A DNA stretch of 64,000 nucleotides from positions 68,140-132,139 of the forward strand of contig LCFP01000012.1 of the NCBI GenBank assembly GCA_000999095.1, in the 5' to 3' direction. The notes under the pieces are model-generated. The model made no database searches. It saw only the letters and a list, made by a program, of their open reading frames with translations, and was not told the DNA's origin. The DNA is from Candidatus Gottesmanbacteria bacterium GW2011_GWA2_43_14. GTDB taxonomy: Bacteria > Patescibacteriota > Microgenomatia > 2-02-FULL-39-11. Below are positions 37,809-53,333 of the stretch, piece after piece; the stretch's first letter is position 1; each line of letters begins with the position of its first letter. The position numbers were made by a program, and so were the translations under genes.

Positions 37809-38972
37809 ATGAAAAAATACTTCCTCCTTTTTTTCCTGTTGCTTCTTCTTCCCCTGAAAGCAGTATTCGCCCAATCTGACGGCAGTCAGAATAATAACGA
37901 AATGAAAGTTTTCCGCATCGAAAGCGATGAGGTAATCGATCACGATGTCTTTGCCGCCGCCGAACGGGTCGATATCGAAGGCACGGTCAACGGCGATGTC
38001 TACGCGGCAGGAGGGCAGGTTTATGTCGGAGGAACTATAACAGGCGATCTTCTGGTTGCGGCCGGGCAGATAAACATCACAGGCGATATCGGCCAGAATC
38101 TGAGACTGGTCGGCGGCAACGTGACCATAAACGGCAATGTCGGACGCAATGTTTCTCTGGCTGCCGGGAATGTGGATATCACCGGTGAAGGAGAAATCAC
38201 CGGCGGCCTGGCAGCTGCTTTCGGCAATCTGAATCTGACCTCACCTGTCGGAAAATACCTCAAAGTTGCCGGCGGCAATCTGACGGTAGCCAACAGAGTC
38301 GGCGGTGATGTGGAAGCCGCCATTGGTGTCATGAGGCTTACCCCCAATGCCCAGATAGACGGAAACTTAACCTATTGGAGTGACAACCGGTCGTCACTTG
38401 ACGAGTCCCGGGTTGCCGGACAGGTGTATTTCAACCGGACTGATATGCCGGCCCGGGGCAGAGTCAGGGATGCCGTCGGACGTGTCGGCGGGGCCATGTC
38501 TGTCGGCAGCTTCATCTTTACCTTTATTTTGGGACTTGTCTTTTTGTGGCTCTTCCCCAAATTCACGCGAAAAACGGTCGGCGTCCTGCGGGAACAGCCG
38601 ATGAAGTCCTTTTTATGGGGAATAGCGACTTTATTTATTTTTATCTTCGTTTTCATCGTTCTGGCCGTGACCATTCTCGGCATACCCCTGGCATTGCTGT
38701 TGGCTTTTCTCTACGGGTTTGCCTCGTATATTTTCCGCATCCCGGTCATCTATTTCGCCGGCTCCTGGCTGATGCAGAGGTTCGGTGATGAGGAAAGGGA
38801 AATCCTCTCCTTGACGGCAGGGCTTATCATTTACTGGATACTGATACTTCTGCCTGTCAGGATGCTAGCGACTTTGGTTGTCACTTTTATGGGATTGGGC
38901 GCGGCTTTTCTGGCCTTCAGGAAAAAGCAGCCGGCGGCTTCGGCAACTGCCCGGGGACGGAAAAAAGCTTGA
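37809..38972 (+). CDS. secreted beta-helix repeat protein (bactofilin-like / polymer-forming repeats) with C-terminal TM segments
   Basis: Signal peptide MKKYFLLFFLLLLLPLKAVFA. Repeats GDVYAAGGQVYVGGTITGDLLVAAGQINITGDIGQNLRLVGGNVTINGNVGRNVSLAAGNVDITG. Three C-terminal TM helices. The track start at 37773 lies upstream of the signal-peptide Met. Confidence 0.45.
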   Translation: MKKYFLLFFLLLLLPLKAVFAQSDGSQNNNEMKVFRIESDEVIDHDVFAAAERVDIEGTVNGDVYAAGGQVYVGGTITGDLLVAAGQINITGDIGQNLRLVGGNVTINGNVGRNVSLAAGNVDITGEGEITGGLAAAFGNLNLTSPVGKYLKVAGGNLTVANRVGGDVEAAIGVMRLTPNAQIDGNLTYWSDNRSSLDESRVAGQVYFNRTDMPARGRVRDAVGRVGGAMSVGSFIFTFILGLVFLWLFPKFTRKTVGVLREQPMKSFLWGIATLFIFIFVFIVLAVTILGIPLALLLAFLYGFASYIFRIPVIYFAGSWLMQRFGDEEREILSLTAGLIIYWILILLPVRMLATLVVTFMGLGAAFLAFRKKQPAASATARGRKKA

Positions 38973-39006
38973 AAAAACGGTAGTCATCTGTTATATATAA
39001 ATAATT

Positions 39007-39090
39007 ATGACGGCGCGTCACGGTAACGAAATTAATATCCTCTCAATTATTGTCCTTGTCATTGGACAGGGCAAAATGCGGGAGGCCTGA
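39007..39090 (+). CDS. ilvL: ilv operon leader peptide (27 aa: MTARHGNEINILSIIVLVIGQGKMREA)
   Basis: Small ORF in the 170-nt ilvD leader. It is rich in Ile/Leu/Val codons (ATC CTC TCA ATT ATT GTC CTT GTC ATT) and is followed by an antiterminator/terminator arrangement. No obvious SD. Confidence 0.55.
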   Translation: MTARHGNEINILSIIVLVIGQGKMREA

Positions 39091-39118
39091 AAAGCAAAAA
39101 ATTTTTAATTTAAAAAAA

Positions 39119-39150
39119 GCCTCTCAAAACAGAGAGGTTTTTTGGTTTTT
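39119..39150 (+). terminator. attenuator terminator of the ilv operon (GCCTCTC-AAAACA-GAGAGGC plus TTTTTTGGTTTTT)
   Basis: Hairpin directly abutting the ilvD start. Its 5' arm can alternatively pair with GGGAGGC (39080-39086), which overlaps the leader peptide stop. The 3' arm GAGAGG doubles as the SD for the TTG at 39142. Confidence 0.6.
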
Positions 39151-43145: not shown

Positions 43146-44213
43146 ATGTCAAAAATGAAATTCGGAGACACGCAGGAAACAGTGGTTACCAGGGAGGAGT
43201 TTCCCTTAAGCCGCGCCAGAAAAGTCCTTAAAAATGAGACAATTGCCGTCATCGGTTACGGCGTCCAGGGGCCGGCCCAGGCGCTGAATCTCAGGGACAA
43301 CGGATTTAAAGTCATCGTCGGCCAGAGAAAACCGTCACCTTCATGGAACAAGGCTCTCAAGGACGGCTGGAAGCCGGGCAAAGACCTTTTTTCCATTGAA
43401 GAGGCCTGTAAAAAAGGGACCGTTGTAGCCTATCTGTTGTCCGATGCCGGACAGGTAACTTTATGGCCGGCTGTCAAAAAATATCTGACGGAAGGCAAAG
43501 CTCTTTATTTTTCCCACGGCTTTGCCGTTACCTACCGCAAACAAACCGCCGTCGTGCCCCCGAAAAATATCGACGTTCTATTGGTGGCTCCCAAAGGCGC
43601 CGGCCGCAGTGTCAGAAGGAATTTCCTCTCCGGCTCCGGCATCAATTCCAGTTATGCCGTTTTTCAGGATGCCTCGGGCAAAGCAGGCGACCGGGTTAAA
43701 GCAATAGGGATGGGGATAGGATCAGGCTTTTTGTTCGAAACGACTATTGAAAAGGAAGTATACTCCGATTTGACCGGCGAACGGGGGGTTCTGATGGGAG
43801 CCATCGCCGGCATTATGGAAGCCCAGTACAATGAGCTTCGCAGGCGTGGCCATACGCCGAGCGAAGCCTTCAATGAAACAGTCGAGGAAGCCACCCAGTC
43901 TTTGATCCCCCTGATCGGCGAAAACGGCATGGATTGGATGTTTGCCAACTGCTCGACAACCGCCCAAAGAGGCGCTTTGGACTGGAAAGGCAAATTCCGC
44001 CAAGCCGTCGAGCCTGTTTTCAGGCAGTTATATACTTCGGTCAAAAAAGGCGAAGAAACGAAAAGGGTCCTTAAATCCAATTCCAGTCCCGATTATAAAA
44101 AGAATCTGCGCCGGGAGCTGGACTTGATTAAAAACAGCGAGATGTGGCGGGTAGGCGCCAAGGTCAGGAGCTTAAGGCCGGAAAAAATAATATTGGTCAA
44201 AGGCAAAAAATGA
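43146..44213 (+). CDS. ilvC: ketol-acid reductoisomerase
   Basis: IAVIGYGVQGPAQALNLRDNGFKVIVGQR (NADPH-binding). 355 aa. SD AAAGGAG upstream. Confidence 0.9.
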   Translation: MSKMKFGDTQETVVTREEFPLSRARKVLKNETIAVIGYGVQGPAQALNLRDNGFKVIVGQRKPSPSWNKALKDGWKPGKDLFSIEEACKKGTVVAYLLSDAGQVTLWPAVKKYLTEGKALYFSHGFAVTYRKQTAVVPPKNIDVLLVAPKGAGRSVRRNFLSGSGINSSYAVFQDASGKAGDRVKAIGMGIGSGFLFETTIEKEVYSDLTGERGVLMGAIAGIMEAQYNELRRRGHTPSEAFNETVEEATQSLIPLIGENGMDWMFANCSTTAQRGALDWKGKFRQAVEPVFRQLYTSVKKGEETKRVLKSNSSPDYKKNLRRELDLIKNSEMWRVGAKVRSLRPEKIILVKGKK

Positions 44214-46057
44214 GCACCAACGGTTTTTACCATATCAGCTGTTTTATCTGCTCCAAAGTCTGGGATGAAAAGGTAAACACGACCGTCTGCAGCTGCGGCG
44301 GGCCTTTGGACATTGTTTACGATTACGACCAGCTGGCCGGTTTGAATACCTATCTTCTGCGCAACGCTCCGCCGAAGGTGATCAAGTATCTGGACTTCTT
44401 TCCCCTAAAAGAAAGAAAAGCACTGGTGAGTTTGGATGAGGGAGCCACCCAGCTTCATAAAGCGGAAAACCTCGGCAAACGATTATCACTGCCGAAACTT
44501 TACATCAAAAACGAGGGCTTGAATCCGACCGGCGCCTTCAAGGACCGGGGTTCATTTGTCGAGATCAACAAAGCCAAAGAGCTCGGCTTTGCTAAAGTCT
44601 GTGTCGCTTCAACAGGCAACATGGCGGCATCCGTGGCAGCTTACAGCGCCCAGGCCGGATTGACCTGTTTTGTCTTTGTCCCGGAAAATACGCCCAGGGG
44701 AAAACTGGCCCAGGCCATTTCTTACGGTTCACATGTCATCCAGGTCAGGGGCACCTATTCGGATGCTTATGACTTGACGATGAAGGTAGCCGCCCATTAC
44801 CGCTATTATCTGGCGGGCGATTATGCCTTCCGGGGAGAGGGCCAGAAATCGCTGTCATACGAAGTCTGTGAGCAGTTGTGGTTTTCGCCGCCTGATTGGG
44901 TTTTGGTTCCGGCCGGTATGGGCACCAATCTTTCGTACATTTGGAAAGGATTCAAGGAGTATTACCGTTTGGGACTGATCCCCAAATTGCCCCATATGGT
45001 GGCAGTCCAGGCGGAAGGATCTGCCCCGATTGTTACTGCATTTGAGAAAAGGTCCAAACTCGTGCCTGTCGGAAAGCCCCAGACTGTCTGTTCCGCCATC
45101 GCCGTCGGCAATCCGATAGACGCGCCGAAAGTCTTTGCCGCACTCAAAGAGTCAAAGGGCCAGGCAATAGCAGTTTCGGATGACGAGACTTTAAAAGCCC
45201 AGCAGGAACTGGCCAAACTGGAAGCTCTGTATGTCGAGCCGTCCTCGGCAACCGTGATAGCTGCCCTGAAAAAACTTATAAAAAAAGGCCTGATAAAGGA
45301 AAGCGATACCGTGGTGGCTGTGGCAACCGGAGCCGGTCTCAAGGATCCCGCGACCACGCTGAAAGTCATTGCCGAGCCGCCATTGATCGAACCTGTTTTG
45401 TCCGAAGTGGAAAGGGTCATGGACAGCGATTTTTTAAGCTTGAGGGCAGGCAGTGTCGGAGAAAAAGAAAAGCTGATATTTGCCAAAGTCCCGGCTTTAC
45501 GGCAGGTGAAGGAGATAATCAAAAAGGAATTCAGCCTGAGCCTGGATGATGAAACAGTCAAAATCATCCGCAACGTCATTGCCAAATTCATAAACATCAA
45601 GGGCAAAAAGATCGTCAAAGCGGATTTGCAGTCGATTATCGAAACGGTTATTGCCGATGAACGCAGGCAAAAGACTTTGGAAGTAGTTGATTTCCATATC
45701 GAAACTTTCAAGAAAAAGAAGCCCATGGCAACAGTCACGGTTGATATTAAAGGCCGTAAGTATACGGAAACCAGTGACGGGGTAGGTCCTGTCGATGCCG
45801 CCATCCGCGCCATCACAGCAGCCATCCGCAAAAATGATGCGGTCAAATTCAGGCTGACCGATTTTGCCGTCGAGATTCCGACCACCGGTTCCGACGCTAC
45901 GGTTGAAGCAACGATGGTCCTTCAGGATGAACACGGCACCCAGGTAGTGGAAAAGGGGACCTCTCCGGATATTATCGTCGCCTCTATCGAAGCCTATGAA
46001 AAGGGGTATAATGAACTTGTTTATCAAAGATCCAAAAACGGAAAGGATAAAAAATGA
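44210..46057 (+). CDS. threonine-synthase-fold PLP enzyme fused to a LeuA/CimA-type allosteric regulatory domain (putative threonine deaminase/synthase-like enzyme of the ilv operon)
   Basis: N-terminal Cys4 ribbon (CFICSKVW ... CSCGG). PLP lysine motif NPTGAFKDRGS. Fold-type II core. C-terminal approx 150 aa matches the LeuA_dimer regulatory domain (SDGVGPVDAAIRAITAAI ... TGSDATVEATMVL ... DIIVASIEAYEKGYNEL). ATGA overlap with ilvC. ridA immediately downstream. Confidence 0.7.
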   Translation: MSTNGFYHISCFICSKVWDEKVNTTVCSCGGPLDIVYDYDQLAGLNTYLLRNAPPKVIKYLDFFPLKERKALVSLDEGATQLHKAENLGKRLSLPKLYIKNEGLNPTGAFKDRGSFVEINKAKELGFAKVCVASTGNMAASVAAYSAQAGLTCFVFVPENTPRGKLAQAISYGSHVIQVRGTYSDAYDLTMKVAAHYRYYLAGDYAFRGEGQKSLSYEVCEQLWFSPPDWVLVPAGMGTNLSYIWKGFKEYYRLGLIPKLPHMVAVQAEGSAPIVTAFEKRSKLVPVGKPQTVCSAIAVGNPIDAPKVFAALKESKGQAIAVSDDETLKAQQELAKLEALYVEPSSATVIAALKKLIKKGLIKESDTVVAVATGAGLKDPATTLKVIAEPPLIEPVLSEVERVMDSDFLSLRAGSVGEKEKLIFAKVPALRQVKEIIKKEFSLSLDDETVKIIRNVIAKFINIKGKKIVKADLQSIIETVIADERRQKTLEVVDFHIETFKKKKPMATVTVDIKGRKYTETSDGVGPVDAAIRAITAAIRKNDAVKFRLTDFAVEIPTTGSDATVEATMVLQDEHGTQVVEKGTSPDIIVASIEAYEKGYNELVYQRSKNGKDKK

Positions 46058-47467: not shown

Positions 47468-48553
47468 TTAATTGAAAATATATACCGAAATTTTGTTGCC
47501 GGTTTCTCCGGTGCCTAAGATTTTGGACCTATGTGTATTTTTATCAGCGATATCCATAGTCCTGAAACCGTCTGAAATGAATTTTTCCACGGCACCTTCA
47601 ATCGCCGACGCTTCTTTTTGCAAATGAAATGAAATTTTCAGCATCATGGCATCAGACAGGATAGCGCCTATCGGATTGGCAATGTTTTTACCGGCAGCCC
47701 TGTTGAATGCACCGTGGATCGGTTCGTAAAGGGCATATTCATCTCCGATTGAAGCGGAAGGCAATAGGCCGATTGAGCCGGCTATGACAGAGGCTTCGTC
47801 TGTCAGAATATCGCCGAACATGTTTTCCGTCAGGATTACGTCAAAATCAGCCGGCCTTTTGATAATCTGCATGGCCGCGTTATCGACAAACAGATGGGTT
47901 AAGACAACGGCCGGATATTTAACCGCAACCTCGCCAACCGTTTTCCGCCAAAGCCTGGACGTTTCCAAAACATTGGCTTTATCAACAGAGGTGACTTTTT
48001 TCTTTCGCCTCATGGCGAGATCAAAAGCGATCTTGGCTGCCCTTTCGATTTCGGATTTCATATATACAGAAGTATCGATTGCCGTTGTGCCTCCGTCTTT
48101 CCGTTTCCTCGGCTCCCCGAAATAAATTCCTCCGGTCAGCTCCCTGACAACCAGCAAATCAACGTGTTTTATTCTGTCGTTTTTTAAAGGAGATAAATCC
48201 ATAAGATCGGGGTAGACTTTCACCGGACGCAGGTTTGCAAATAGATTTAAAGATTTTCTCAATTTCAAAAGTCCCTGTTCCGGCCGGATTTTGGCTCCGG
48301 GGTTATTATCAAACATCGGATCACCGACAGCGCCGAACAATACGGCATCGGACCTCCGGCAAAGTTCCAGAGTTTCCTCAGGCAGCGGGTTTTTGGTTTT
48401 AACGATGGCAGCTGCTCCGATTAATCCTTCTTTGAAAACAAAATCATGTCCGTATTTTTCAGAAACAGTTTCCAGTACTTTGACCGACTGGGCAGTAACT
48501 TCCGGCCCGACTCCGTCACCGGGCAAGACGGCAATTTTATAGGTTTTTTTCAT
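47468..48553 (-). CDS. leuB: 3-isopropylmalate dehydrogenase
   Basis: MKKTYKIAVLPGDGVGPEV and conserved IMDH core. 361 aa. Confidence 0.9.
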   Translation of the reverse strand: MKKTYKIAVLPGDGVGPEVTAQSVKVLETVSEKYGHDFVFKEGLIGAAAIVKTKNPLPEETLELCRRSDAVLFGAVGDPMFDNNPGAKIRPEQGLLKLRKSLNLFANLRPVKVYPDLMDLSPLKNDRIKHVDLLVVRELTGGIYFGEPRKRKDGGTTAIDTSVYMKSEIERAAKIAFDLAMRRKKKVTSVDKANVLETSRLWRKTVGEVAVKYPAVVLTHLFVDNAAMQIIKRPADFDVILTENMFGDILTDEASVIAGSIGLLPSASIGDEYALYEPIHGAFNRAAGKNIANPIGAILSDAMMLKISFHLQKEASAIEGAVEKFISDGFRTMDIADKNTHRSKILGTGETGNKISVYIFN

Positions 48554-49121
48554 AAGTATTTATTTCCTCCTCATGTGACAAGATGTATCCGAGTTCATCC
48601 GTGCCTGACAGGAGGCAGTACTTGCGGAAAGCATCAATCTCAAAATTGAATTTTATTTTTATTTCAGGAATTTTCACTTCCTGTTTTTTTAATTCAACGT
48701 TAATTTGACAGTCAGGCCGTGTTTTTACAATCTTCATGAACCTGCTTATTTCCATGTCATTTAACTTGATGCATAAGAGCCCGTTTTTAAGAGAATTATT
48801 GTAAAAAATATCTCCGAAGGTGGAGGAAATGATTACTTTGAATCCGAAATCAGTTAAAGCCCAGACCGCATGTTCGCGGCTGGAGCCGCTGCCGAAGTTT
48901 TTGCCGGCCGCCAGAATTTTGGCTCCTTTTGTTTTTTTCTCATTGAAAATATGCTTTTTAAATTTGCCGCCGGTTTCATACCGCCAGTTATAGAAAAGAT
49001 ATTTGCCCAAGCCGGTCCTTACGGTTGTTTTCAAAAATACAGCCGGAATGATCTGGTCGGTGTCGATATTTTCGGTCTCGACAACTATTGCCGTTGAAAT
49101 AATTTTGGAAAAAGATTTCAT
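48537..49121 (-). CDS. leuD: 3-isopropylmalate dehydratase small subunit
   Basis: 194 aa aconitase swivel domain (NIDTDQIIP ... GKNFGSGSSREHA). Confidence 0.85.
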   Translation of the reverse strand: MKSFSKIISTAIVVETENIDTDQIIPAVFLKTTVRTGLGKYLFYNWRYETGGKFKKHIFNEKKTKGAKILAAGKNFGSGSSREHAVWALTDFGFKVIISSTFGDIFYNNSLKNGLLCIKLNDMEISRFMKIVKTRPDCQINVELKKQEVKIPEIKIKFNFEIDAFRKYCLLSGTDELGYILSHEEEINTYEKNL

Positions 49122-50518
49122 AAATAATTCCTGGGGTCGGCAATCCTGCCTTCAAGTGCCGAAACAGCCGCTGTCAGGGGACTGGCCAGAAAAGTCCTCG
49201 CCCCCGGCCCCTGCCTGCCTTCGTAATTGCGGTTGGAAGTCGAAACGCAATATTTGCCGGCAGGAATCCGGTCGCTGTTCATGGCTATGCAGGCGGAGCA
49301 GCCGGACCACCGCCACTGGAAACCGGCATCGGTAAAAATCCGGTCCAATCCTTCTCTTTCCGCTGCCAGTTTTACCTGACGGGAACCGGGAACAACCAGG
49401 GCCGTCACCTCCGGGCTGACTTTTTTGCCTTTGATGATTGCGGCTGCCTCCCGCAGGTCTGATATCCGGGCATTGGTGCAGCTGCCGATGAATATATAAT
49501 CGATGGGGAAGCCTTCCAATTTACCCGACGGCTTAAGGTTCATATAGCTCAGCGCTTTTTCCATCGATTTCCTGCGGCTTTCCGATTTCTCGTTTTTAGG
49601 ATCGGGTATTTCCCCGTTAATTTTTATGGCGGAAGCCGGATCCGTACCCCAGGTAACCAGAGGGGTGATTTTGTTTGCTTCAAATTTTAGCGATTTGGCA
49701 AATTTCGCTCCCTTGTCAGTTTTCAATTTCTTCCATTGCCGGACTTTCTCGTCAAATTTTTGACCATTGGGAACAAATTTCTTGCCTTTCAGATAACTGA
49801 AAGTTATTTCGTCAGGTGCGATCAGTCCCGCCCGGGAGCCTGCTTCTATCGACATGTTGCAGATTGTCATTCTTTGCTCCATGGTAAGATTTCTGATTAA
49901 ACTTCCGGTATATTCGATAAAAAATCCCGCGCCTCCGCCCGTTCCGATTCCGGCCAGGATTGTCAGGATGATGTCTTTGGCAGTGACTCCCTTGCCGATA
50001 TCGCCTTCAACGGCTATTTCCATCGACTGCATGAGTTTGGCCAAGATGCATTGTGTCGCCAGTACCTGTTCTATCTCGGTCGTGCCGATGCCGAAAGCCA
50101 GGGCGCCGAATGCGCCGTGTGTTGAGGTATGGGAATCTCCGCAGACGATAGTTTGACCCGGCTGGACAAAACCGAGCTCAGGCGCCATCACATGGACGAT
50201 TCCCTGGTAAGCGGAATCAAGCCCGTAGAGCCTGATGCCGAAATCACGGCAGTTCTTAATTAAAGTCTCTACCTGAAGTTTGGACAGGGGATCGGCAATG
50301 ACGGTCTGGTTGTCAGTTGGTACGTTATGGTCGCAGGTGGCGATGGTTTTGTCCGTCCGGCGGACTCTTAAGCCTTTTAGGCGAAGATTGGCAAAAGCCT
50401 GCGGGGTGGTCACCTCATGCAGGATATGGCCGTCGATGTAAAGGATTGAAGGCCCGTTTTTTTCCCGGTGGACAATATGTTTTTCCCAGATTTTTTCAGC
50501 CAGAGTTTTTTTCGTCAT
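49118..50518 (-). CDS. leuC: 3-isopropylmalate dehydratase large subunit
   Basis: Aconitase-family motifs (VCGDSHTSTHGAFGALAFGIG ... GSCTNARISDL). Likely start MTKKTLAEKIWEKH at 50518; the track ORF extends to 50605. Confidence 0.9.
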   Translation of the reverse strand: MTKKTLAEKIWEKHIVHREKNGPSILYIDGHILHEVTTPQAFANLRLKGLRVRRTDKTIATCDHNVPTDNQTVIADPLSKLQVETLIKNCRDFGIRLYGLDSAYQGIVHVMAPELGFVQPGQTIVCGDSHTSTHGAFGALAFGIGTTEIEQVLATQCILAKLMQSMEIAVEGDIGKGVTAKDIILTILAGIGTGGGAGFFIEYTGSLIRNLTMEQRMTICNMSIEAGSRAGLIAPDEITFSYLKGKKFVPNGQKFDEKVRQWKKLKTDKGAKFAKSLKFEANKITPLVTWGTDPASAIKINGEIPDPKNEKSESRRKSMEKALSYMNLKPSGKLEGFPIDYIFIGSCTNARISDLREAAAIIKGKKVSPEVTALVVPGSRQVKLAAEREGLDRIFTDAGFQWRWSGCSACIAMNSDRIPAGKYCVSTSNRNYEGRQGPGARTFLASPLTAAVSALEGRIADPRNYL

Positions 50519-50520
50519 GT

Positions 50521-52032
50521 TTATTTTGCGGAAAGATGATTTATGGCATCGATATAAGCCAGGCAGGCAGCCATGACGGTATCGGTGTGGACTGCCGTGC
50601 CCCAACAGAGATTCTTGTTCGATTCCAGGGCGATGTTTACCCGCGCCTGGGCATCGGAACCGCCGGTGGCAGCCTGGATTAAAAATTCCTTCAACGGATA
50701 TTTTTTACCCAGGCTTTTATCGATCGCATTGAAGATGGCATCTATTGCTCCGTTCCCCAGAGCTTCGGCTGATTTTATTTTTCCGCCAACCAGCAATTTA
50801 ATGTCTGCCCGCGGTTTTATATGGCTGCCGGAAATAATTTTCAAATCAGAAAGCCTTATTTTTTTAGTTTGCCCGTTTGACCCGTTGCTGCCAAAAATAG
50901 TCAGCAGGTCTTCGTCGTAGATTTCTTTTTTGGCATCTGCAAGCTGCAAGAATTTTGCGTAGAGTTTATCAAGTTCTTCCGGAGAAATCCTGATGTTCAT
51001 TTTTTCCAGTTTATGTCTGACCGCTGCCCGGCCGCTTCTGGCGGTCAGGATAATCTGCGACAGGCCTGCGCCGACAATTTTCGGATCAATGATCTCATAA
51101 TTTTCCCTGTGTTTGAGAATGCCGTCCTGGTGGATGCCTGATGAATGGGCAAAAGCATTTGATCCGACGATGGCTTTGTTCGGCGCCACGGGAATGCCCA
51201 TGATGTGGGAAACCATCCGGGAAGTATTTATTATTTGCCGGGTTTTGACTTTGGTCGAAAAATTCTGAAAATTTTTCCTGGTATAAAGAGCCATGACGAT
51301 TTCTTCCAGGGAAGTGTTGCCGGCCCGCTCGCCTATGCCGTTGACGGTCACTTCCGCCTGCCGGGCGCCGTTTTCGATGCCTGCTAAAGTATTGGCGGTA
51401 GCCAAGCCCAGATCATCATGGCAGTGGACGCTGATGACAGCCTTGCCGATATTCGGTACGTTTTCTTTCAGGTATTTGATTTTTCGGCCGAATTCTTCCG
51501 GGAAACAGTAGCCGGTGGTATCGGGGATGTTGACGACGGTCGCGCCGGCGTGTATTACGGCGGTAATCAGTTTGGCCAGAAATTCCAAATCAGCCCGGCC
51601 TGCGTCCTCGGCGTAAAACTCGACGTCGTGCACGAATTTTTTGGCGTACTTAACGGCTTCGACTCCCTTTATCAGGATTTTTTCCCTGGTCGATTTGAAC
51701 TTATATTTGATATGGACATCGGATGCTCCTATGCCGGTATGGATTCTGGGACGTTTGGCATGCTGCAAAGCTTCAGCCGCCGCGTCGATATCCTCTTTGA
51801 CAGCCCTGGTCAGTCCGCAGACAACCGTTTTTTTGATCACCCTTGAGATCTGGTCGACTGAGCGGAAATCACCCGGGCTTGAGACGGGGAAGCCGGCCTC
51901 GATTGTGTCCACCCCCAGATTTTCCAGCTGCAGGGCCAGTTGGATTTTCCGGTTGGTGTCCAGTTTCGCCCCGGGCGACTGTTCTCCGTCGCGCAGAGTC
52001 GTATCGAAAATATGGATTTTTTGTCTGCTCAT
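50521..52032 (-). CDS. leuA: 2-isopropylmalate synthase
   Basis: [31 protein letters not shown], and C-terminal LeuA_dimer regulatory domain ([16 protein letters not shown] ...). Confidence 0.9.
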
Positions 52033-52037
52033 CCGAT

Positions 52038-52376
52038 TCAGTCTCCTTTGGTGTTTACTTTTTTAGGTTCCAAAAGCAAAACGACTGCTCTTTTTTCAGC
52101 TTTCGGACAGTGTTTGACGCCCTTCGGTACGACATATCCTTCACCTGACGACAATTCCACGTTTCCGTTTTCGGTTTGAATGGTAATTTTCCCTTTATAA
52201 ATCAGGAAAAATTCGTCATCATCGTGTTTATGCCAATGAAATTCTCCCTTGACCGCGACAGCCCTTAAGACCCAGTCATTGATATAGGCGACATCGACAG
52301 GAGACCAGTAAGTGTCTCCGAGCTTTTTATCTACCTGGGCAAGATTGTATTTTTCGGCCATTTTATTAACATTCAT
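52038..52376 (-). CDS. cupin-domain protein (first gene of the leu operon)
   Basis: [17 protein letters not shown] ... [12 protein letters not shown] (cupin_2 His/Glu pattern). SD AGGAAAGGAG upstream. Only 5 nt precede leuA. Confidence 0.6.
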
Positions 52377-52405
52377 AAAACTCCTTTCCTGCCGTTTTGC
52401 GGCAT

Positions 52406-52430
52406 AAAAAAACCTCTCCTGTTTGGAGAG
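52406..52430 (-). terminator. attenuator terminator of the leu operon (CTCTCC-AAACAG-GAGAGG plus 7 T, on the - strand)
   Basis: Lies about 30 nt upstream of the cupin start. The 5' arm TCTCTCC can alternatively pair with GGGGAGA 20 nt upstream. Nearly identical to the ilv attenuator hairpin. Confidence 0.6.
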
Positions 52431-52469
52431 ATTTAAAATTTATTAAAAAGGATTTTCTCCCCAAACCGC

Positions 52470-52544
52470 TCAGACCTTCAAAAGAAGGCTAAGATCAGGG
52501 TTAAGGAGAGAAATTCCGGTCATGTTTGATTTTATTTTACTCAT
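52470..52544 (-). CDS. leuL: leu operon leader peptide (24 aa: MSKIKSNMTGISLLNPDLSLLLKV)
   Basis: Small - strand ORF in the leu leader with seven Leu codons, including a CTT AGC CTT CTT TTG run. The coding segment GGAATTTCTCTCC is complementary (12/13) to downstream GGGGAGAAAATCC. Confidence 0.55.
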   Translation of the reverse strand: MSKIKSNMTGISLLNPDLSLLLKV

Positions 52545-52574
52545 TCCGCTATTTTCTGTCAATTCCGGTCCGAT

Positions 52575-52601
52575 AAAAAAGGACCGGACAGGTCCTTTTT
52601 T
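52575..52601 (-). terminator. bidirectional-looking intrinsic terminator (AAAAAA-GGACCGGACAGGTCC-TTTTTT) ending the upstream - strand operon
   Basis: Perfect 5-bp stem with flanking A and T runs, just downstream of the stop of 52623..53333 (-). Confidence 0.6.
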
Positions 52602-52622
52602 ATTTTTAAAGATAATTGGTGT

Positions 52623-53333
52623 TTAATTCACGTCAGTTGACACTTCGTAAAACCTGAGCTGAAGCAACTTCAGTCCCTGGTTATCATAGCTCCAGAAATA
52701 ATCCTGAAGCGCGTCATTGAACAGATTATACCTCTCAGTCTGACCGTCACCGTCAAGATCGACATAGATATAAAGCAGTTCCTTGCTGACATTGGTAAAG
52801 GCACTCTTTCCTTTTGTCCTCACTTGGACTGATGTGTAGACCGAGCACCATTCTTCACCCGTTAAAGGATCGGTGGCGCAGGTTGTCATCGTTGATTTAC
52901 CGCCCGGTTTACCCAAAGCTCTGGCATAGACAGAATATTTGGTAATACCGTCATTTTCCGGATCCGGATTGGGCAGTTGAAAAGAAGACTGTCCGTTATC
53001 GGTACAGTTTCCGTCAAGCACCTGGAATTCTCCCATGCTTAAATTTATCTTGCAGTTTCCTTCGAGAGGAACGAATATCCTGTGTCCGCTTGAGCCTGTC
53101 ATACTGGCAGTTTTATTTTTAGGCACACCGATAATATTCAAATTATAGTGGGTGCCGGAGGGCGCGCTGTTGCCTGTTAAGCCAGGCTTGGCTGCCCTGC
53201 CTCTGGTTGAAGTCGAACCATACTGGACTCCCCATAGGACCATAAATACGACTACAGTCAGGAAAAAGATGACCATTAAAGGTGATAAAACGATTTTTAA
53301 ATCTTTATGTATTTTTTTTCTCGCCTTCGGCAT
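52623..53333 (-). CDS. hypothetical N-terminally membrane-anchored extracytoplasmic protein
   Basis: N-terminal TM LSPLMVIFFLTVVVFMVLWGV. Cys-containing, Gly/Asp-rich extracellular part. No family recognised. Confidence 0.45.
   Translation of the reverse strand: MPKARKKIHKDLKIVLSPLMVIFFLTVVVFMVLWGVQYGSTSTRGRAAKPGLTGNSAPSGTHYNLNIIGVPKNKTASMTGSSGHRIFVPLEGNCKINLSMGEFQVLDGNCTDNGQSSFQLPNPDPENDGITKYSVYARALGKPGGKSTMTTCATDPLTGEEWCSVYTSVQVRTKGKSAFTNVSKELLYIYVDLDGDGQTERYNLFNDALQDYFWSYDNQGLKLLQLRFYEVSTDVN

Follow-up and report, generated by a model that had tools for sequence, protein, structure and literature searches.

The leucine operons of Escherichia coli and Salmonella are preceded by leuL (Rfam family RF00512), a member of the established trp/leu class of transcription attenuators, in which a short open reading frame (ORF) with a run of Leu codons lies ahead of leuA and is followed by a rho-independent terminator and the mutually exclusive hairpins 1:2, 2:3 and 3:4. 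In Firmicutes, control of the ilv-leu operons is usually exerted by a T-box (RF00230). Moreover, leader peptides made from leaderless transcripts are documented for the Corynebacterium ilvB and leu attenuators; in C. diphtheriae the start site of the ilvB leader, mapped by RNA-seq, is at the start codon, and the leu leader encodes MNRANLLLLRRGGSQA, which contains a Leu run (PMC5784534). Here we analyse the leader of the leu operon in a stretch of 64,000 nucleotides from Candidatus Gottesmanbacteria bacterium GW2011_GWA2_43_14 (contig LCFP01000012.1, positions 68,140 to 132,139), the whole of which we call the window. An earlier note on this DNA, made from the letters alone, had proposed a Leu-rich leader peptide and an attenuator on the minus strand of 52377-52573. 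Our analysis makes it very likely that this segment belongs to the trp/leu/his class of ribosome-mediated transcription attenuators and adjusts expression of cupin-leuABCD to charged tRNA-Leu. What we observe directly are the sequence elements, the alternative pairings predicted for them and the conservation of both.

Reading the minus strand of 52377-52573 verified every leader element described. Behind the end of a 236-aa gene and the terminator of that gene, the order of elements is promoter, small ORF, purine tract, AU-rich linker, a hairpin with seven T, a Shine-Dalgarno sequence and the cupin gene. The parts of the leader are the following.

52534..52562, minus strand: sigma-70-type promoter, with the -35 box TTGACA at 52562-52557, a spacer of 17 nt and the -10 box TAAAAT at 52539-52534.
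52470..52523, minus strand: leader peptide ORF of 17 aa plus stop, MTGISLLNPDLSLLLKV.
52499..52517, minus strand: region 1, GGAAUUUCUCUCCUUAACC, comprising codons 3-9 with Leu6 and Leu7; its partner is region 2.
52469..52493, minus strand: inner hairpin, CUUAGCCUUC-UUUU-GAAGGUCUGAG, enclosed by helix 1:2 and spanning Leu11-Leu15, Lys, Val and the stop.
52450..52467, minus strand: region 2, GGUUUGGGGAGAAAAUCC, the switch segment, whose partner is region 1 or region 3.
52421..52431, minus strand: region 3, UCUCUCCAAAC, the 5' arm of the terminator and the first loop bases.
52406..52434, minus strand: intrinsic terminator (3:4), AAAUCUCUCC-AAACA-GGAGAGGUUU, with seven T at 52412-52406.

The promoter scores 11 out of 12 and is the sole promoter-like site in 51900-53000. 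The stop codon is at 52472-52470, region 2 begins 3 nt later at 52467, and the terminator, a 10-bp hairpin at 52434-52410, follows the leader ORF and precedes the first structural gene. The inner hairpin may serve as a pause hairpin for RNA polymerase.

In the minimum free energy (MFE) fold of the leader, helix 1:2 is formed together with the terminator (-50.2 kcal/mol, z = -3.8), and none of 200 shuffles was as stable. The helix is exactly the pairing that had been claimed between GGAAUUUCUCUCC (52517-52505) and GGGGAGAAAAUCC (52462-52450), which are indeed complementary at 12 of 13 positions, with one G-U pair and one A-A mismatch. The 1:2 duplex has an energy of -23.2 kcal/mol, which was equalled or bettered by 2 of 500 shuffles. 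Numbered from the ATG, nt 7-25 (region 1) pair with nt 57-74 (region 2) in the ribosome-free fold, enclosing the inner hairpin, and the terminator forms. Its perfect stem is CUCUCC/GGAGAG around the loop AAACA, and the extended form is AAAUCUCUCC/GGAGAGGUUU; the earlier note had correctly seen the hairpin and its seven T, but divided it as CTCTCC-AAACAG-GAGAGG, which is one base off. The antiterminator that it had drawn between GGGGAGA and TCTCTCC exists as well, but turns out to be longer, since GUUUGGGGAGA (52466-52456) pairs with UCUCUCCAAAC (52431-21) over 11 bp, with -15.3 kcal/mol as compared to -12.3 kcal/mol for the terminator hairpin. For the 2:3 duplex the energy is -17.5 kcal/mol, a value reached by none of 500 shuffles. 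We also simulated translation by placing a ribosome on each Leu codon in turn (6, 7, 11, 13, 14, 15), masking all RNA as far as the 3' edge of that ribosome, and folding the rest of a transcript that does not yet include the 3' arm of the terminator. The 11-bp antiterminator was formed for a ribosome on every one of these codons. With the ribosome on the stop codon (masking to +13 nt), region 2 is no longer accessible, and the terminator forms in place of the antiterminator. All three states of the postulated 1:2, 2:3 and 3:4 arrangement are therefore seen in folds with and without a masked ribosome, and prediction of the minus-strand structure, one of the checks that had been suggested, yields alternative folds rather than a single constitutive terminator.

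To extend the analysis to other genomes, relatives were collected by LeuA scans of species-representative genomes and metagenomes, and by a look-up of IlvD homologues. This yielded another eight leu leaders that share this architecture, with the following leader peptides.

L082: MPGFSLLNLDLGLLLKA
L001: MKNLFLLNLFLLLPGEF
L002: MRNLTLSSLNLLLGEDF
L003: MRNLTLSSLDLLLQRRFLMV
L084: MNNTLSILTDLLLFGEGK
L096: MKKLLLLNLIGLLLEEI
L167: MNKRILLLNLVLLLKE
L085 (more distant): MKIISRINNLSLLLLRSRGEVG

Shared by the eight loci are the promoter, an ORF of 16-22 aa, the LLL run, the motif GGUUUGRGRG, an A-rich linker of variable length and the terminator. LLL is invariant across all nine loci, the window included, and the region 2 core GGUUUG(A/G)G(A/G)G is kept in all members of the family. 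The stop codon of the relatives precedes GGUUUG by 1-5 nt, except in L003, where the motif contains it, and a terminator hairpin of the (C/U)CUCUC type is present in all of them. Leu positions are retained through synonymous changes between CUU, CUC, CUA, UUA, UUG and CUG, which indicates selection on coding and not on the RNA sequence alone. The comparative alignment of leu leaders that the earlier note had recommended thus shows both the Leu-codon run and the alternative pairings to be conserved. All eight relatives fold as 1:2 plus terminator, and as 2:3 once the 5' part is masked; in seven of the nine leaders the 2:3 duplex is better than at least 496 of 500 shuffles. The loop bases of the terminator vary (AAAC, AGACC, UUAAGCC), yet they always complement GGUUU.

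RNAalifold, applied to five relatives, independently predicts the same structure. In an alignment of seven leaders, pairing is seen in 92% of the cells and double changes in 11 pairs, which none of 500 shuffles matched, and slid controls gave 45-63%. Covariation supports 1:2, the inner hairpin and 3:4, and in the inner hairpin four of five pairs are changed on both sides. These counts come from alignments made in steps: in A1, made with MAFFT from all seven leaders, region 2 was wrongly placed for the window and L082, and A1 was replaced by A2, an alignment of the five relatives, and by the model-based realignments A3 and A4. A column-based covariation count for 2:3 was abandoned, as the register of region 2 differs between the rows of A4, and 2:3 was tested by per-sequence duplex energies with shuffle controls instead. 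Likewise, a strict regular-expression motif screen missed L084 and L096 because its terminator pattern was too narrow; it was replaced by a screen for an ORF plus terminator and by a covariance model.

This covariance model, R1, was built from five relatives (L001, L002, L003, L084 and L096), with the window and L082 excluded. Over 1.07 Mb, its top matches outside the training set were L082, the ilv leader of the window, L025 and the leu leader of the window. Within the 64-kb window it matches exactly two sites, the leu leader and the ilv leader. The leu match covers 52514-52404 with 29.5 bits, extends over model positions 1-130 (full-length) and is at the expected site upstream of leuA. Rfam found no matches at gathering thresholds in the whole window, and at E <= 10 in 52300-52700 it returned chance-level matches only, with neither T-box (RF00230) nor Leu_leader (RF00512) among them. 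The only leader family in this last search was Phe_leader, with a sub-threshold match over the terminator (24 bits versus a gathering score of 55). The failure of the earlier note to find a T-box alternative is therefore borne out at both levels of stringency.

The second R1 match in the window is the sister leader of the leu element:

38969..39143, plus strand: ilv leader, upstream of ilvD-ilvB-ilvN-ilvC-(PALP/LeuA_dimer)-ridA-ilvE.

It has a TTGAAA-17-TATATA promoter, followed after 9 nt by the ORF 39007-39090, which encodes MTARHGNEINILSIIVLVIGQGKMREA. Its pairing segments, which offer the same three-way choice as those of the leu leader, are CCUCUC (region 1), GGGAGGC (region 2) and the terminator GCCUCUC-AAAACA-GAGAGGU with six T. 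The ilv hairpin CCTCTCAAAACAGAGAGG has a single occurrence in the window (39120-39137, plus strand, upstream of ilvD), and CTCTC...GAGAG hairpins followed by a T-run are found in the 64 kb only in the leu and ilv leaders, in line with the near-identity of the two hairpins that had been noticed before. R1, although derived from leu leaders, matches the ilv leader of the window at 39036-39143 with 32.4 bits, and the leu-derived model matches the ilv leaders of L163, L165 and L166 with 47-48 bits (E ~1e-5). Thus, the two leader types share more than the hairpin, and judged by their sequences they are plausibly of common ancestry. The 5' arm of each terminator is nearly a copy of its own region 1 (UCUCUCC in both for leu, CCUCUCAA in both for ilv), since the same purine tract must be able to pair with either of them; region 1 in turn is CU-rich because it encodes Ser/Leu in the leu leader or Ile-Leu-Ser in the ilv leader. 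In the ilv element of L162 all three segments have changed coordinately (CCUCC, GGGAGG, GCCUCC). The near-identity of the leu and ilv terminators is accounted for by the common design and needs no shared binding factor. Of the two explanations that the earlier note had offered, shared origin or common recognition, the former is supported by the matches of a leu-only model to ilv leaders, but there is no sign of a common trans-acting recogniser. The peptides differ in keeping with their operons: Leu makes up 23-47% of the leu leaders, with Ile and Val together at most 18%, and the ilv leaders of the same genomes have runs of Ile, Val and Leu with the peptide core ILSIIVLVIGQG, which is kept in relatives. 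This match between amino-acid content and operon is the strongest argument for sensing by the ribosome. For L164 no ilv leader was obtained, because its contig starts at ilvD.

Other arrangements of such leaders occur in the related genomes. Levybacteria (L167:4280-4460) and Daviesbacteria (L168:3280-3625) have a single mixed ilv-leu cluster behind an Ile/Leu/Val-rich leader (MKKFAIVTLVLLDLA and MINIVMLRKSLILLAVLISQV, respectively) with a terminator. The cluster of the Levybacteria contains an additional internal Leu leader directly before leuA (L167:8409-8516), which results in two attenuators in series.

Which peptide the leu leader encodes depends on its start codon. The ORF 52544..52470, described previously as 24 aa with seven Leu, is present and translates as stated (MSKIKSNMTGISLLNPDLSLLLKV, 24 aa), but its Leu count is six. 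Its first ATG (52544-52542) falls between the -35 and -10 boxes, in the spacer of the promoter, and the second ATG (52523) is 10 nt past the -10 box, has no Shine-Dalgarno sequence and opens the 17-aa frame MTGISLLNPDLSLLLKV. The Leu codons of the latter are CUC, CUU, CUU, CUU, CUU and UUG at codons 6, 7, 11, 13, 14 and 15, so that Leu accounts for 6 of 17 residues (35%) versus 10.5% across the window (P = 0.006), a difference that is weak alone. In L082, the closest relative (LeuA 78% identical), TTGACA-18-TATAAT and 9 nt precede MPGFSLLNLDLGLLLKA, and there is no in-frame ATG farther upstream. All related loci have a near-consensus -35/-10 pair, with the -10 box ending 7-13 nt before the leader ATG and no Shine-Dalgarno sequence, and the 16-22 aa peptides of the relatives align with the 17-aa form. 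On account of the position of the first ATG, its missing counterpart in L082 and the promoter spacing of the relatives, the 17-aa version is most likely the functional peptide, rather than the 24-aa one. The same attenuator might instead use the 24-aa peptide from ATG 52544, on a longer transcript that arises by upstream read-through or from another promoter; the reading frame is open from 52544, and the start site has been placed by inference. This variant is unlikely, given that its ATG sits in the spacer of the only promoter-like site of the region, that the strong hairpin and T-run of the upstream gene come just ~30 nt before it, that it has no usable Shine-Dalgarno sequence and that the relatives speak for the shorter form.

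Two further explanations do without a sensing ribosome. One is that a trans-acting factor, either an RNA-binding protein or an uncharged tRNA in the manner of a T-box, reads the CU- and GA-rich motifs shared by both leaders, and that the ORF is incidental. Since the two leaders resemble each other closely in their purine tracts and terminators, one factor could in principle see both. However, the search at E <= 10 gave no match to a T-box or riboswitch, synonymous changes have left the ORF, its frame, the position of its stop and its Leu codons intact, and the runs of Ile, Val and Leu in the ilv leaders are predicted by ribosome sensing but not by a common factor. Moreover, the ilv and leu terminators of Levybacteria L167 differ (CUCCCGC versus AUCUCCC). 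We therefore regard such a factor as highly improbable. An equally small chance is left for a terminator that acts constitutively, or for a short non-coding RNA made from a promoter of its own, with unregulated read-through and with Leu codons that are a by-product of CU-rich stems. It is true that the default fold is the terminated form and that CU-rich stems give Leu or Ser codons in one of three frames. Against this stand the 2:3 complementarity, which includes loop bases, is far above that of shuffles and is conserved, and the ATG, frame, LLL and stop placement that are conserved in nine loci; besides, the operon would be silenced if its only promoter were separated from the leu genes by a constitutive terminator.

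For the ribosome-mediated attenuator, the following sequence of events can be proposed. Transcription would start a few nt before ATG 52523, at TTGACA-17-TAAAAT, and the 17-aa peptide would be made from a leaderless or near-leaderless RNA. This state of the leader mRNA, with a 5' untranslated region of ~0-6 nt, is probable from the promoter geometry, because the ATG follows the -10 box after 10 nt and no Shine-Dalgarno sequence is present. Without a ribosome, or after its release, region 1 (codons 3-9) should pair with GGUUUGGGGAGAAAAUCC, and CUCUCC/GGAGAG with seven U would form and cause termination. When Leu is plentiful, the ribosome would reach the stop codon, its footprint would lie over region 2 and the terminator would form. 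When Leu-tRNA is scarce, the ribosome would stall at one of the six Leu codons, occupying region 1 and the inner hairpin and leaving region 2 free. In the stalled state, region 2 could then pair over 11 bp with the 5' arm and loop of the terminator before the 3' arm exists, allowing read-through into the operon.

Several points weigh against this interpretation. The start site, translation of the peptide, stalling of the ribosome and regulated read-through are parts of it that we infer. Leaderless translation in the Microgenomates lineage is itself only putative. The Leu codons used are not the rarest ones, as CUU and UUG make up 21% and 20% of the Leu codons in the window and only CUC (8%) is uncommon. 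LLL sits in the inner hairpin and not in region 1, so that the blocking of helix 1:2 by a ribosome stalled there would be a steric effect. At equilibrium, the full transcript has a terminator of about -16.6 kcal/mol and an antiterminator of -15.4 to -18.4 kcal/mol, which makes the two nearly iso-energetic; the switch would therefore be decided by co-transcriptional kinetics, as it is in classical attenuators. The alignment used for the pair counts was fitted to the covariance model and represents only ~5-6 independent lineages. Finally, the R1 E-values for the leu leader of the window are marginal, amounting to 0.071 in 733 kb and to 0.0039 in 40 kb under a rough calibration.

Leaderless starts as a general habit of this genome were considered and found no support, since a promoter (score of at least 9 out of 12) abuts the start of none of 44 ordinary genes of the window, compared to 1.6% of random positions. 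A Shine-Dalgarno-like motif within 20 nt is found at only 11 of 32 gene starts of the window, so that most genes have AT-rich upstream sequences without the motif.

The surroundings of the leader were assigned from Pfam matches and from the gene calls on L081, a contig from a metagenome that is identical to the window.

52623-53333, minus strand: upstream gene of 236 aa, without a family match.
52573..52603, minus strand: intrinsic terminator of this gene, an A-run/GGACC-loop-GGUCC/T-run hairpin that folds with -16.1 kcal/mol.
47468..52376, minus strand: regulated operon cupin-leuA-leuC-leuD-leuB.
52376-52038, minus strand: Cupin_2 gene, 112 aa, the first gene after the attenuator, with the Shine-Dalgarno sequence AGGAAAGGAG.
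52032-50521, minus strand: leuA (Pfam).
50518-49118, minus strand: leuC (Pfam).
49121-48537, minus strand: leuD (Pfam).
48553-47468, minus strand: leuB (Pfam).

The terminator of the upstream gene is the 5' limit of the leader unit. A small GCCG-CAAAA-CGGC hairpin is found at 52404-52377 (minus strand), between the T-run of the attenuator and the Shine-Dalgarno sequence of the cupin gene. The cupin gene lies 5 nt upstream of leuA and is also kept in the closest relative (L082:2163-2501), where two additional genes, a 142-aa ORF and a YbaK-like ORF, stand between the attenuator and the cupin gene. The minus strand of the leader also contains an exact direct repeat of 10 nt, GACCGGAATT, at 52570-52561, where it overlaps the -35 box, and at 52521-52512, within leader codons 1-4. 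It may be an operator, but it is absent from L082 and hence probably due to chance.

Among species-representative genomes, the nearest LeuA proteins (64-68% identity) come from metagenome-assembled genomes (MAGs) labelled Gottesmanbacteria and Patescibacteria and from one labelled Gammaproteobacteria, and Bacteroidota follow with ~60%. The IlvD homologues with 66-70% identity are labelled Gottesmanbacteria, Levybacteria, Daviesbacteria and Patescibacteria. Common to the window and these MAGs is the gene order ilvD-ilvB-ilvN-ilvC-PALP/LeuA_dimer-ridA-ilvE, convergent with leuB-leuDC-leuA. L002 and L163 are both on contig CAZFNL010000120.1, which is labelled 'uncultured Gammaproteobacteria', and their leaders and gene order are nearly identical to those of the Patescibacteria-labelled L003 and L166; the label of this contig is probably wrong.

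The ilv operon of the window further encodes, at 44144-46057 (plus strand), a fusion protein of ~615-637 aa with an N-terminal pyridoxal phosphate domain resembling threonine synthase (PALP) and a C-terminal allosteric/dimerisation domain of LeuA. The same fusion is found at L162:9730-11592, L163:5369-7234, L164:4036-5877, L165:6159-8009 and L166:15117-16982. In the ilv cluster a RidA gene follows directly after the fusion and no canonical ilvA is present, whereas Levybacteria L167 have a normal IlvA with PALP and Thr_dehydrat_C domains instead. The fusion may be a substitute for threonine dehydratase with a feedback domain of the LeuA/CimA type.

A broader proposal, for and against which we see the case as evenly balanced, is that the leu and ilv leaders are paralogues of one ancestor and form an undescribed attenuator family with a promoter-abutted, leaderless design that is conserved across the Microgenomates (Gottesman-, Levy- and Daviesbacteria). 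Judging by the labels of its homologues, the window most likely belongs to the Microgenomates within the candidate phyla radiation (CPR), a lineage commonly portrayed as having a reduced metabolism and poor regulation. A consistent promoter-abutted design that lacks a Shine-Dalgarno sequence is seen for both the leu and the ilv operon. If the proposal is true, those CPR bacteria that have retained the synthesis of branched-chain amino acids control it through the coupling of transcription to translation, with charged tRNA as the signal. Confirmation would mean that uncultivated bacteria sense the supply of amino acids through ribosome stalling, which needs coupling of transcription and translation. 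It would also provide a covariance model ready for annotating such leaders, and a natural case of leu and ilv leaders that apparently diverged from one design through an exchange of regulatory codons. A search of the literature collection available found no paper that joins CPR with leader-peptide attenuation, which is absence of evidence only. The mechanism is a textbook one; the sequence family, which is absent from Rfam, and the host lineage appear to be undescribed.

How, then, does the element compare with other leaders in front of leucine genes? The leuA loci of the Bacteroidota type resemble it in having a Leu-rich small ORF with a hairpin and T-run within ~25-40 nt, directly upstream of a LeuA that is ~57-60% identical; examples are L004 and L087 with MNKLLLQQLLIIE and L068 and L154 with a peptide ending in LDILLLLLVSTR. 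Their RNA sequences, however, are unrelated, their promoters are of different types, and R1 matches none of them except weakly L025 and L018. Small ORFs rich in Leu or in Ile/Leu/Val, with terminators, are seen upstream of leuA in L004, L087, L088, L068, L154, L018, L118, L025, L136 and L150 (e.g., MNKLLLQQLLIIE and MNRFQLDILLLLLVSTR). With the T-box the leader shares the 5' position, the choice between terminator and antiterminator and the physiological output, but it has no specifier loop, T-box sequence or covariance-model match, and sensing would be by the translating ribosome and not by tRNA binding. The ilvB, leu and trp attenuators of Corynebacterium belong to another phylum and have another RNA sequence, and the leaderless state, which was mapped there for ilvB, is deduced here purely from promoter geometry. 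With leuL of E. coli and Salmonella, the leader has in common the elements named at the outset and the masking of region 2 that a ribosome at the stop codon would bring about. It differs from leuL in that no match to RF00512 in sequence or structure is seen even at E <= 10, and in that its 17-aa peptide has some of its Leu codons in region 1 and the others in the inner hairpin, whereas leuL has four consecutive rare CUA/CUC codons. Moreover, the leader described here has a promoter that abuts the start codon and no Shine-Dalgarno sequence, and the first gene that it would regulate is a cupin gene rather than leuA.

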